Below, piece after piece: positions 1 to 4,023 of a DNA stretch of 4,023 nucleotides (positions are counted from its first letter, which is position 1; each line of letters opens with the position of its first letter). The position numbers were made by a program, and so were the translations under genes. Source of the stretch: a virus (taxonomy: Duplodnaviria; Heunggongvirae; Uroviricota; Caudoviricetes); IMG/VR virus record IMGVR_UViG_2579778622_000009; one strand, written 5' to 3'. A model generated the notes under the pieces. That model saw only the letters and a list, made by a program, of their open reading frames with translations. It was not told the DNA's origin and ran no database searches.

Positions 1-122
1 CACCACTTTGTCTAATTCGTCAGATTCTGACCAGACGGTTCAGGCTGTACGCTTACGGATATACCGCCAGCCTGGTTGATAAAAAATGGTTGCGACTGGC
101 AGCAAGGAGGAATCATGGCTGA
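1..122 (+). CDS. ninE: NinE-family protein, C-terminal fragment (start lies upstream of the window)
   Basis: Frame 3 is open from the window edge to TGA at 120-122 and translates ...[39 protein letters not shown]. The basic C-terminus and the position immediately upstream of ybcO fit the ninE slot of lambdoid nin regions. It is absent from the ORF track because no start codon lies inside the window. Identity is from recalled similarity, not a search. Confidence 0.55.
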   Translation, partial: PLCLIRQILTRRFRLYAYGYTASLVDKKWLRLAARRNHG

Positions 123-405
123 TTTGAGAAAAGCAGCGCGTGGTCGGGAATGCCAGGTAAGAATCCCTGGCGTATGTAATGGCAATCCTGAAACGTCTGT
201 ACTGGCACATATCCGGCTGGCTGGATTGTGCGGTACCGGTATCAAACCGCCAGACCTGATTGCCACCATTGCATGTTCTGCCTGTCACGACGAGATCGAC
301 CGTCGCACGCATTTTGTTGACGCTGGATATGCAAAAGAATGCGCGCTGGAAGGTATGGCGAGAACGCAGGTTATCTGGCTGAAAGAGGGGGTAATTAAGG
401 CGTGA
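116..405 (+). CDS. ybcO: DUF1364-family protein, putative zinc-binding nuclease (YbcO-like), 96 aa
   Basis: ATG at 116 is preceded by a strong Shine-Dalgarno AAGGAGG at 104-110. The product [29 protein letters not shown]...[13 protein letters not shown] is Cys/His-rich and matches DLP12 YbcO as recalled. The ORF-track start at 76 has no RBS and would overlap ninE. Stop TGA at 403-405. Confidence 0.85.
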
Positions 406-764
406 ATACCTACAATATCACATTACCCTGGCCGCCGAGCAATAATCGCTATTACCGCCATAATCGCGGGCGCACGCACATCAGCGCAGAGGGGCAGGCA
501 TACCGCGAAAACGTCGCCCGAATCATTAAAAACGCAATGCTGGATATCGGCCTGGCTATGCCTGTGAAAATCCGCATTGAGTGTCACATGCCGGATCGCC
601 GTCGCCGTGACCTGGATAATCTACAAAAGGCCGCTTTTGACGCACTCACCAAAGCAGGTTTCTGGCTGGATGATGCTCAGGTCGTTGATTACCGCGTTGT
701 GAAGATGCCGGTTGTCAAAGGTGGAAAGCTGGAACTGACCATCACTGAACAGGGAGATGAATGA
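402..764 (+). CDS. rusA: RusA-family Holliday junction resolvase, 120 aa
   Basis: GTG start at 402 overlaps the ybcO stop (GTGA), with a purine-rich GAGGGGG at about 385-391 upstream. The product has the RusA hallmarks: N-terminal [11 protein letters not shown], and acidic residues D70, D72 (RRDLDNL) and D91 (WLDDAQV) at the known catalytic positions. Confidence 0.9.
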
Positions 765-901
765 TGTTTGAGTTTTATATGGCAGAACTTCTTCGCCACC
801 GCTGGATGCGCCTGCGCTTATATCGTTTCCCCGGTTCTGTTTTGACCGATTACCGAATACTGAAGAATTACGCCAAAACACTGACAGGAGCAGGAGTATG
901 A
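761..901 (+). CDS. ylcG: Small basic protein YlcG-like, 46 aa (not in the supplied ORF track)
   Basis: ATG at 761 overlaps the rusA stop (ATGA). Hand translation gives [46 protein letters not shown] with stop TGA at 899-901. Its position between rusA and Q matches the DLP12 ylcG slot. Confidence 0.6.
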
Positions 902-986
902 AGTCAGAGATAACAATCAACTAATACTGTTTTGTTGATTTTTGCTTGTAATTGGCGTTCTGGTCTGAGTTTTGTGGAGTAAGTTG

Positions 987-1370
987 ATGCGTGATATTCA
1001 GATGGTTCTTGAGCGTTGGGGAGCGTGGGCGGCTAATAATCATGAAGATGTGACCTGGTCGTCCATTGCCGCCGGTTTTAAGGGATTAATTCCTTCAAAA
1101 GTAAAATCTCGCCCACAATGTTGTGACGATGACGCGATGATCATTTGCGGGTGCATGGCCCGTCTGAAAAAGAACAACAGCGATTTGCATGATTTATTAG
1201 TAGATTATTATGTAGTCGGTATGACATTCATGTCACTGGCAGGTAAGCATTGCTGCTCTGATGGTTATATCGGGAAAAGGTTACAGAAGGCTGAGGGCAT
1301 AATTGAAGGGATGTTAATGGCATTAGATATCCGGTTAGAGATGGATATCGTTGTTAATAACTCTAATTAA
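987..1370 (+). CDS. quuD: Q-like late-gene transcription antiterminator (QuuD-like), 127 aa
   Basis: ATG at 987 is preceded by GGAG at 976-979; the ORF-track GTG at 972 is probably an over-extension. The product [24 protein letters not shown]... carries Cys clusters ([15 protein letters not shown]) consistent with a zinc-binding Q family. It sits in the canonical spot upstream of the late promoter region and lysis genes. Stop TAA at 1368-1370. Confidence 0.85.
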
Positions 1371-1390
1371 TATGCCAATTGTTTACTAAA

Positions 1391-1421
1391 AATTATTAAA
1401 AATGGGGCGTTGAGACGCCCC
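1391..1421 (-). terminator. Rho-independent terminator on - strand, likely ending the nmpC transcript
   Basis: Perfect 6-bp GC stem GGGGCG (1404-1409) / CGCCCC (1416-1421) with loop TTGAGA. Read on the - strand it is followed by ATTTTTAATAATTTTT (complement of 1391-1403). On the + strand it is followed by CAAAAATAAA, so it is orientation-specific for the - strand. Confidence 0.5.
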
Positions 1422-1440
1422 CAAAAATAAAGGGTAATAT
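1410..1440 (+). promoter_or_regulatory. Candidate Q-dependent late promoter (pR'-like): -35-like TTGAGA at 1410-1415, -10-like TAATAT at 1435-1440
   Basis: Found by eye about 40-70 bp downstream of the Q stop, where lambdoid pR' normally lies. The 19-bp spacer is suboptimal. A -10-like TTTATATAG at about 1451-1460 in the presumed initial transcribed region could act as a sigma-dependent pause element. Boxes are inferred, not verified. Confidence 0.25.
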
Positions 1441-1509
1441 ATAACAGAAGGTTTATATAGTTAGAAGCAAGGTTGTGCTTCTAAAGGAAGTGGCTTGAGG
1501 GAGCCACTT

Positions 1510-1550
1510 ATATGTTGGGGAGGCAAAGCCTCCCGCAACATATCTTTTTC
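1510..1550 (+). terminator. Rho-independent terminator on + strand (tR'-like), ending the short late leader transcript
   Basis: Stem 1510-1524 (ATATGTTGGGGAGGC), loop AAA, stem 1528-1543 (GCCTCCCGCAACATAT) with one bulged G, followed directly by CTTTTTC at 1544-1550. The U-tract is present only in the + orientation. Confidence 0.5.
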
Positions 1551-1559
1551 GTAATCAGA

Positions 1560-2642
1560 TTAGAACTGATACACCAGACCTACAGCGACGATGTCGTCGG
1601 TATCAATACCAGCTGTTTTGGTAAACTTACTATCGTCAATTAAGTTGATTTTGTAATCAACAAAAGTGGACATGTTTTTATTAAAGTAGTAAGTAGCACC
1701 GACATCGACATACTTGACTAAGTCTCGGTCACCATGAACACCAAGGTCTTTACCTTTTGACTGAAGGTAAGCAACAGATGGTCGCAGACCGAAGTCAAAC
1801 TGATATTGTGCTACTGCTTCAAAGTTTTGTGCTTTGTTTGCAATATGGTTATTACCAAAAACGGTCATATTCTGAGTTTCAGAATATGTGGTAGCCAGAT
1901 AGATATTGTTCGCATCATATTTCAGGCCTGCAGCCCATACTTCCGCATTTTTGCCGGAGGCATTGAATTTGCTCTTACCATAGGCGACCTGACCGTCAGT
2001 GCGATCTGATTTAGCATAGGTTGCACCCACGCCGAATCCTTCATACTCATAAGTAGTGGAGAAACCGAAACCATCACCATTGGCTTCAGTTACGTCAGTG
2101 CGGTCATTTTTACCCTGATACTGAGCAGCAAAGTTCAGGCCATCGACCAGACCAAAGAAGTCGTTGTTACGATAGGTTGCAACACCAGTGGTGCGACCAG
2201 TCATGAACACATCTGTTTGGGTCCAGGTATCGCCACCGAATTCTGGCAGAACGTCAGTCCACGCACCGATGTCGTATGCTACACCGTAGTTACGGCCGTA
2301 ATCGATTGAGCCGTAGTCACCGAATTTCAGGCCTGCAAATGCAAGACGGGTTTTGTCTTTGGAGGAACCTTGAGATTCAGCGCGGTTGCCTTTGAATTCA
2401 TATTCCCACTGACCGAAACCAGTCAGTTGATCGTTGATTTGGGTTTCACCTTTGAAGCCAAGACGGGCATAAGTAGTATCACCATCATCTGCATCGTTAG
2501 AGGAAAAGTAGTGCTTGGCATTAACTTTCCCGTACAGATCCAGCTTGTTACTGTCTTTATTATAAATTTCAGCTGCCTGAGCAGACATCGCCATCAGTAC
2601 TGATGCAGCTACAGCAGAAATTGCCACTGTTAATTTTTTCAT
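1560..2642 (-). CDS. nmpC: Outer-membrane general porin, OmpC/OmpF/PhoE family (NmpC/Lc-like), 360 aa precursor, apparently intact
   Basis: N-terminal signal peptide [23 protein letters not shown] followed by the mature start [17 protein letters not shown], typical of enterobacterial porins. Aromatic/Gly-rich beta-barrel composition. C-terminal ...VGLVYQF with terminal Phe, the beta-barrel assembly signature. Start codon complement CAT at 2640-2642, stop complement TTA at 1560-1562. Confidence 0.92.
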
Positions 2643-2760
2643 CGTGAGCCCTTTTTTTTGAACTATTATTAAAAAATGATGTCACTGCGCGATAAATATT
2701 CATCTAATCAATGTGATTATTTCAAGATGTAAGTTTTAGTTTCTCATTTAATTTGTGAAG
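2643..2760 (-). promoter_or_regulatory. nmpC translation-initiation region and probable promoter/5'UTR (exact boxes uncertain)
   Basis: On the - strand an A-tract plus AAGGG lies just upstream of the ATG (complement of 2643-2660). A candidate -35 TTGAAA is at the complement of 2720-2725. The region is extremely AT-rich. Transcription start not determinable from sequence alone. Confidence 0.25.
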
Positions 2761-3230
2761 TAGATCTCTATTTTTATCTGAACTTTTTCTATCGAAACCT
2801 ATTTATGGCTCTTATTTGAACAAAAATAAACCTATTAGCTAATTTATATTAATGGCTGTTATTTATGGGGGTTCTATAATTCGGTGGTTTAATTTAAATC
2901 AACTAAAAATAACGCCGGAAATTATTTATTGGTTATTTGTTGAGGTTTTCTTATATATTTGTGGTGGTGTTTTGAACACTCGGTAGCATTCTCATAAATA
3001 TCATTCAGTGGTTTACGTACGTAAAAAATTGGTTATGCTGTTAAGAGTGGTTACTTCGTCACACAGCTTAAACCCGCCGTCGAGCTGGTTTTTCCATTTT
3101 TTGAGTCTCGATATTAGCTGATAACTCAATACCTGAGTTATTCACTGACTCCGAGTCTGTTACGTTTCTGCTTTTTTGCGATACGTTGTATTCCCTCAAT
3201 TTACACCCGCTTTGTCTGCGAGGTGGGGTT

Positions 3231-3446
3231 ATGAAATCCATGGATAAGTTAACAACGGGTGTCGCCTATGGCACCTCAGCAGGTAGTGCCGGTTACTGGT
3301 TTTTACAGCTGCTCGATAAAGTCACGCCCTCACAGTGGGCAGCAATAGGTGTGCTGGGTAGCCTGGTATTTGGCCTGCTGACGTACCTGACAAACCTTTA
3401 TTTCAAGATTAAAGAAGATAAGCGCAAGGCTGCGAGAGGTGAATAA
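3231..3446 (+). CDS. essD: Class II pinholin (phage 21 S-like) with dual-start motif, 71 aa
   Basis: RBS GAGGTGGGG at 3220-3228 and ATG at 3231. The product [71 protein letters not shown] has two transmembrane segments and a basic C-terminus. Met1-Lys-Ser-Met4 gives two in-frame starts (3231 and 3240), as in holin/antiholin pairs. The ORF-track start at 3186 is probably an over-extension. Confidence 0.9.
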
Positions 3447-3943
3447 TGCCTCCATCATTACGAAAAGCCGTTGCTGCTGCTATTGGTGGCGGAGCAATTG
3501 CTATAGCATCAGTGTTAATCACTGGCCCAAGTGGTAACGATGGTCTGGAAGGTGTCAGCTACATACCATACAAAGATATTGTTGGTGTATGGACTGTATG
3601 TCACGGGCATACAGGAAAAGACATCATGCTCGGTAAAACGTATACCAAAGCAGAATGCAAAGCCCTCCTGAATAAAGACCTTGCCACGGTCGCCAGACAA
3701 ATTAACCCGTACATAAAAGTTGATATACCGGAAACAACGCGCGGCGCTCTTTACTCGTTCGTTTACAACGTGGGCGCTGGCAATTTCAGAACATCGACGC
3801 TTCTTCGCAAAATAAACCAGGGCGATATCAAAGGCGCATGTGATCAGCTACGTCGCTGGACATATGCTGGCGGTAAGCAATGGAAAGGTCTCATGACTCG
3901 TCGTGAGATTGAGCGTGAAATCTGTTTGTGGGGTCAGCAATGA
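3446..3943 (+). CDS. rrrD: SAR endolysin (T4-lysozyme-type muramidase with N-terminal signal-arrest-release domain), 165 aa
   Basis: ATG at 3446 overlaps the pinholin stop (TAATG). The N-terminus [20 protein letters not shown] is a Gly/Ala-rich weakly hydrophobic segment typical of SAR domains. Glu35, Asp44 and Thr50 ([18 protein letters not shown]) sit at the catalytic-triad positions of T4-lysozyme-like enzymes. Stop TGA at 3941-3943. Confidence 0.9.
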
Positions 3944-4023
3944 ACAGAGTAACCGCGATTATCTCCGCTCTGGTTATCTGCATCATCGTCTGCCTGTCAT
4001 GGGCTGTTAATCATTACCGTGAT
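3940..4023 (+). CDS. rzpD: Rz-like inner-membrane spanin (i-spanin), N-terminal fragment continuing past the window end
   Basis: ATG at 3940 overlaps the endolysin stop (ATGA). Translation [28 protein letters not shown] is an N-terminal transmembrane anchor, as expected for Rz, and lies directly after the endolysin. Confidence 0.7.

Follow-up and report, generated by a model that had tools for sequence, protein, structure and literature searches.

What does the short reading frame wedged between rusA and the late antiterminator gene of a lambdoid prophage encode, is it a genuine gene, and what might its product do? The window considered here is the whole 4,023-nucleotide stretch of viral DNA that was analysed (IMG/VR record IMGVR_UViG_2579778622_000009), in which a preliminary description, made from the sequence, had pointed to an unlisted 46-codon basic reading frame. 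The window derives from a DLP12-type cryptic lambdoid prophage of E. coli, whose nin/late region it represents: positions 56–4023 match E. coli ATCC 8739, E. coli C and further strains with 100% identity, and the gene order runs from the 3' end of ninE through ybcO, rusA, ylcG, quuD, a porin gene on the minus strand, essD and rrrD to the start of rzpD. The features that matter for the argument are as follows.

115–405, plus strand: ybcO (DUF1364, putative nuclease), the earliest gene of the overlapping chain to lie complete in the window
402–764, plus strand: rusA, Holliday-junction resolvase gene, GTG start overlapping the ybcO stop; the coupled gene upstream of ylcG
752–756, plus strand: Shine-Dalgarno-like GGGAG within the 3' end of rusA, 4 nt before the ATG at 761 and 7 nt before the ATG at 764
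761–764, plus strand: ATGA shared by the rusA stop and the ylcG start, of the kind that marks translational coupling
761–901, plus strand: ylcG coding sequence, ATG start, 46 codons plus TGA; basic protein, predicted two-helix hairpin
898–924, plus strand: 8-codon mini-ORF (MKSEITIN and a stop), its ATG overlapping the ylcG stop (ATGA), with AGGAG at 890–894
902–986, plus strand: spacer between ylcG and quuD, 85 nt, part of the short-Q module
987–1370, plus strand: quuD, short PF06530-type Q antiterminator gene, downstream of ylcG
1560–2642, minus strand: prophage porin gene, 360 aa, intact

Several peculiarities of the surrounding DNA were recorded along the way. The porin gene bears the RefSeq name ompC in the identical genomes and corresponds to nmpC, which is split by IS5 in K-12. 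The first 55 bases of the window show no collinearity with ninE of ATCC 8739 or K-12. In NZ_CP182203, both halves of window positions 1–130 lie inside a single 550-bp stretch under ybcN/ninE, a layout that implies that about 420 bp were deleted and that the joint at 55/56 links ybcN-derived sequence to the 3' end of ninE; the exact 55/56 joint was not found in any complete E. coli genome of the collection searched. Between quuD and the porin gene, a GC-rich hairpin (GGGGCGTTGAGACGCCCC, window 1404–1421) with A- and T-runs on its flanks was scored as a minus-strand terminator, and further short hairpins can be read at 1461–1541; these intergenic hairpins are probably the terminators of the two convergent genes. 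A promoter/terminator scan returned nothing above chance inside or adjoining ylcG, and an Rfam scan of the whole window (E ≤ 1) matched no RNA family.

The reading frames of ybcO, rusA and ylcG form an overlapping chain, of which ylcG is the last member. Its layout agrees with the preliminary description in every measurable respect: the 46-codon frame opens with ATG at 761 and closes with TGA at 899–901; rusA (402–764) ends in a TGA at 762–764 that shares bases with the ylcG ATG at 761–763, which gives the ATGA overlap; and the distance of about 85 bp to the Q gene is exactly 85 nt, counted to the quuD ATG at 987. An alternative in-frame ATG is present at 764. The product, described as Arg-rich, is indeed basic (K+R 8 versus D+E 3, computed pI 10.27), and the twelve-letter peptide quoted for it corresponds to residues 12–23. 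When homologous loci were scanned for a Shine-Dalgarno sequence, GGAG, GAGG or AGGA was located 3–10 nt 5' of the ylcG start in 24 of 40, the remaining 16, mainly K-12-type loci with GGGGA, missing the pattern. Tight coupling to rusA, as had been proposed, is backed by the ATGA overlap, with the addition that the link to the downstream Q gene is equally strong.

This reading frame is very probably ylcG, a genuine conserved small-protein gene of the nin (delayed-early) region of Enterobacteriaceae lambdoid phages and prophages. The NCBIfam model NF033498 (YlcG_phage_expr) matches the product with 78.6 bits against a cutoff of 30 (E = 2e-22, profile positions 1–39 of 41), and PHROG 2705, a family of unknown function, matches it with E = 5.8e-22. 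Pfam PF26818 is precomputed on all YlcG homologues; our own Pfam-A scan of the product gave no match because the copy scanned lacked that family. At the same position in the 100%-identical ATCC 8739 locus, RefSeq carries ylcG (WP_000971071.1, "YlcG family protein"). The counterpart in K-12 MG1655 is ylcG, b4509 (YP_588439.1), which is identical to the window protein at 44 of 46 residues, the differences being Y6N and M16G (N6 and G16 in K-12). The window protein has the length typical of the family, at 46 aa, and all of the core residues R12, R14, W15, L18, Y31, R32, L34 and N36, and its gene lies immediately 5' of the Q gene quuD in a lambdoid nin region. K-12 YlcG and orf45, as ylcG is entered between rus and Q in the phage 82 record X92588, share with it the length, the rusA-ylcG-quuD position and the ATGA start overlap. 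There is no substantive difference from K-12 YlcG, and the window copy is a strain variant.

As a gene, ylcG is already known and routinely annotated, going back to the phage 82 and K-12 entries. The frame had been called unlisted, which is right in that it falls under the size cutoff of the ORF track and wrong in that it already carries the annotation ylcG. Nor is it of a kind easily missed by automated annotation, as had been supposed: PGAP names ylcG via NF033498 in the identical genomes. The accompanying remark that its function is unknown even in K-12 stands, b4509 being described there as "uncharacterized protein YlcG".

The family is small and taxonomically confined. An exhaustive HMMER search of 1.84 billion representatives recovered only 35 clusters, mostly small (27–62 aa), none of which belongs to a larger known family. 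A profile search returned 894 proteins at E ≤ 1e-3; among the 120 matches listed, the named proteins were nearly all "YlcG family protein" and every one came from Enterobacteriaceae, with the genera Salmonella, Citrobacter, Enterobacter, Klebsiella, Raoultella, Leclercia, Lelliottia, Atlantibacter, Trabulsiella and Yokenella represented. At the DNA level, ylcG has a close copy in 3440 of 5426 complete E. coli genomes. Among the matches listed, those covering at least 93% of the query were all annotated as YlcG family protein, and among the E. coli matches listed there was one partial match of 41 bases labelled hypothetical protein.

A few unusual homologues turned up as well. In Lelliottia wanjuensis (L024:2336-2635) and in one further protein (P0132), YlcG is 99 aa long owing to a 50-residue N-terminal extension; the ATGA overlaps with NinG and with Q are retained in the L024 type, and the extension, considered as a clue to function, contains no Pfam domain. 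A 110-aa protein (P0143) is a chimera of YlcG with the N-terminus of replication protein O, probably a deletion product. A 667-bp contig labelled Actinomadura rugatobispora (L021) bears a YlcG-coding fragment with 59% identity, and another homologue (P0101) bears the label Bacillus sp.; contamination of these actinomycete and Bacillus assemblies with enterobacterial DNA is the most likely source of both.

To assess coding status, 108 related loci were collected from annotated phage records, from genomes taken at one per species, and from IMG/VR, yielding 40 distinct ylcG coding sequences from Escherichia, Kluyvera, Enterobacter, Klebsiella, Raoultella, Salmonella, Lelliottia and Entomohabitans. 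The encoded lengths stay within 45–48 aa, the N-terminally extended 99-aa Lelliottia version excepted. The preliminary description had named frameshifts or stops in otherwise conserved homologous regions as evidence against a gene; none occurs in the 104 loci (among the 108) with a called ORF. The ylcG sense frame is open in 40 of 40 distinct sequences, including 20 of 20 divergent ones, and the other five frames are open in 0–28 of 40. Entropy at codon positions 1, 2 and 3 amounts to 0.69, 0.64 and 1.16 bits. The comparison of synonymous with nonsynonymous changes across lambdoid nin regions, suggested at the outset as a check, likewise favours coding: between the E. coli type and divergent types, pS is ~0.78 (saturated), and pN is 0.25 in the core (residues 10–38) and 0.55 in the tails, with omega ~0.1 where computable (window versus mEp237 or Kluyvera). 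The 11 most divergent sequences all have R12, R14, W15, L18, Y31, R32, L34 and N36 in common, and R12, R14, W15, D30, Y31, R32 and N36 do not vary in a 58-sequence alignment; the conserved core reads L-R-x-R-W-x-x-L-R...G-[ST]-V-x-x-D-Y-R-I-L-x-N. Judged from these alignments, the YlcG protein sequence is under purifying selection, which supports a coding gene whose peptide matters.

One qualification is needed. Across 16 close E. coli-type loci, pN/pS is 0.51 for ylcG, about twice the values of 0.22 for rusA and 0.26 for Q, with small counts on 46 codons, which suggests that constraint on ylcG may be relaxed in cryptic prophages such as the DLP12-type window. The DLP12 copy could on this account be a decaying passenger, open and perhaps still translated after host selection has gone. 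We regard this as possible, though we lean against it. The K-12 annotation of DLP12 as a defective prophage and the deletion joint at window 55/56 fit such decay; the uninterrupted frame in all 104 loci with a called ORF, the close copies in 3440 E. coli genomes, still annotated as intact, and the smallness of the counts speak against it, as does a report that the host factor HusR regulates rusA-ylcG (PMC12844172).

In that report, the strongest gSELEX peak of HusR (YnfL), a LysR-type factor, lies upstream of rusA; the authors consider rusA-ylcG an operon that HusR switches on in stationary phase, and refer to Hemm et al. (2008) for the stationary-phase induction of ylcG (PMC12844172). The HusR box CAGGTAAGAATCCCTG is given there as the site from which rusA-ylcG is activated in stationary phase (PMC12844172), and an exact copy of it is found at window 154–169, inside ybcO. 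In an ASKA overexpression screen, ylcG is among the genes with a glycogen-deficient phenotype (PMC2853380). Our literature search on ylcG, b4509 and orf45 found no functional experiment or assigned function.

AlphaFold2, supplied with the 58-sequence alignment, placed YlcG residues 3–20 and 24–43 in helices that meet at a conserved P/R-G-S/T turn (mean pLDDT 71, pTM 0.36). YlcG is thus predicted, with moderate confidence, to be a soluble, strongly basic two-helix hairpin. Charged residues are spread throughout the protein (GRAVY −0.06), and a small membrane protein or type I toxin of the Hok kind was rejected, as YlcG has no hydrophobic run of 15 or more residues. Foldseek searches of the model against PDB and BFVD returned generic helical hairpins only, with nothing at E < 1; a search of PDB chain sequences with the 58-sequence profile gave no match even at E ≤ 10; and no family among the PADLOC anti-phage defence models matched YlcG at E ≤ 1. 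With a model of only moderate confidence and no Foldseek match at E < 1, any binding mode for YlcG is a guess. Two known proteins invite comparison. The histidine-kinase inhibitor Sda (46 aa, PDB 3d36_C) resembles YlcG in size and predicted helical-hairpin architecture, but the Foldseek hit is not significant (E = 9.6, probability 0.08), sequence similarity is absent and the organism and context are different, so that Sda only illustrates, by analogy, how a hairpin of 46 aa can work. NinH of lambda (68 aa) is a small nin-region protein encoded in an ylcG-like slot, right after ninG and with an ATGA-type overlap; however, ninI lies between ninH and Q in lambda, unlike ylcG, which adjoins Q. Homology of the two was rejected (hhalign probability 0.13, 4 aligned columns).

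Comparison of 40 loci showed a 4-nt overlap between the ylcG start and the stop codon of the ORF before it in 39, and an xTGA at this junction in all 40. In 24 diverse loci, the upstream gene encodes NinG in 11 and RusA in 6, two separate Pfam families, and in phage 434 ylcG is preceded by an lpxR moron rather than by a resolvase gene. A Q antiterminator gene lies directly 3' of ylcG in at least 25 of 26 related loci, with Q belonging to PF06323 in 10, to PF03589 in 8 and to PF06530 in 7. For the two long Q types, the ylcG stop and the Q start overlap by 1, 4 or 11 nt, the exception being one locus (L015) with a 250-aa Q and an 80-nt gap after ylcG; the short PF06530-type Q follows a spacer of 72–85 nt, in the window as elsewhere. 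In phages with overlaps at both ends of the gene, the Q Shine-Dalgarno sequence sits within the last ylcG codons. The gene thus keeps to the slot before Q whichever of the three Q or two resolvase families is present. This conserved position could simply reflect the fixed gene order of lambdoid phages. The sequence type of YlcG shows no co-variation with the family of either neighbour, be it the upstream resolvase or the downstream Q: a single subtype, such as ...IYQTLGETA, is found beside Q genes of 125, 165, 213, 229 and 269 aa and after NinG, RusA-like and other upstream ORFs.

The overlap of the ylcG start with the resolvase stop would allow ribosomes to be handed from the resolvase gene into ylcG, and the overlap of the ylcG stop with the Q start, found in most relatives, would hand them on into Q; overlaps at both ends imply that translational coupling carries ribosomes from resolvase through YlcG to Q. 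The window would retain the step from rusA to ylcG, within the delayed-early nin operon, with the step from ylcG to Q replaced by the 85-nt spacer.

Folding of that spacer detected no stable structure; it is less stable than its shuffles (z = +1.76). At the position of the 8-codon mini-ORF, two distant loci (L025 and L028) encode MKLEASLKHF.., which resembles the N-terminus of a long PF03589-type Q (MNLESIAKYF). This suggests that the mini-ORF is a stump left by an exchange to the short QuuD-type Q module, and it is probably the vestige of a formerly coupled Q start. The coupling of ylcG to Q is broken in the window, the 85-nt spacer having arrived together with the short QuuD-type Q module.

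Returning to the role of the protein, a constrained, basic, soluble and hairpin-shaped peptide whose type is independent of its neighbours is most readily explained by a target common to all hosts. We infer, tentatively, that YlcG may be a small cytoplasmic protein binding such a target, either a nucleic acid or a host protein. A more elaborate version, which we find rather doubtful, would make YlcG, as a basic hairpin of 46 aa, a 'pre-Q' factor universal to the lambdoid phages of enterobacteria, synthesised in a fixed ratio with resolvase and Q, which would bind a shared host target or RNA and tune either the delayed-early-to-late switch or the processing of recombination intermediates. Candidate targets would then be RNA polymerase, the nucleoid, branched DNA or an RNA, and YlcG would act independently of the Q or resolvase family that a given phage carries.

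It appears unlikely that YlcG is instead a dedicated partner of its neighbours, serving RusA/NinG as accessory subunit or regulator, or else modulating Q-dependent late antitermination. Its gene is well placed for this, being always wedged between both genes, with a junction resolvase upstream in 17 of 24 loci (albeit from the separate RusA and NinG Pfam families) and Q downstream in at least 25 of 26, and the ATGA overlaps would give near-stoichiometric synthesis. However, one YlcG subtype occurs beside Q proteins of 125–269 aa and diverse upstream ORFs, a shared docking surface across three Q and two resolvase Pfam families is unlikely, and in phage 434 the gene follows the lpxR moron rather than a resolvase. 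YlcG does not look like a partner dedicated to the resolvase or Q, since its sequence type varies independently of the families of both.

Very improbable, in our estimation, is a pure coupling relay, in which translating ylcG would serve only to bring ribosomes from resolvase to the start of Q, with a peptide that does nothing by itself. Such a relay would look like what most phages show, with an ATGA overlap at either end of ylcG and the Q Shine-Dalgarno sequence embedded in its final codons, but the conservation of the amino acids argues against it: eight residues are invariant, core pN is 0.25 against a saturated pS of 0.78, and the length is held at 45–48 aa. Moreover, the frame is intact where a spacer of 80–85 nt uncouples ylcG from Q, as in the window. 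Finally, we dismiss a chance reading frame, or an antisense 99-codon ORF at 621–920 as the real feature: of 40 sequences, 28 leave antisense frame −3 open, but it is shut in 8 of 20 divergent homologues, in all 20 of which the sense frame is open, third-position variability agrees with the sense frame, and the curated HMMs (NF033498 and PHROG 2705) match the sense product, so that the antisense ORF was rejected for want of a conserved frame.

As a discovery, ylcG matters little, since curated HMMs name it automatically. What is added here is explicit evolutionary support, in the form of purifying selection, for its coding status, and a synteny rule, by which ylcG lies ahead of Q whichever of the three Q families is present and shows no co-variation. 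YlcG belongs to a large set of conserved small phage proteins, and learning its function would hold modest interest for those who study phages and small proteins. The lack of co-variation with the neighbouring genes points towards a common host or nucleic-acid target and away from a neighbour-specific partner.
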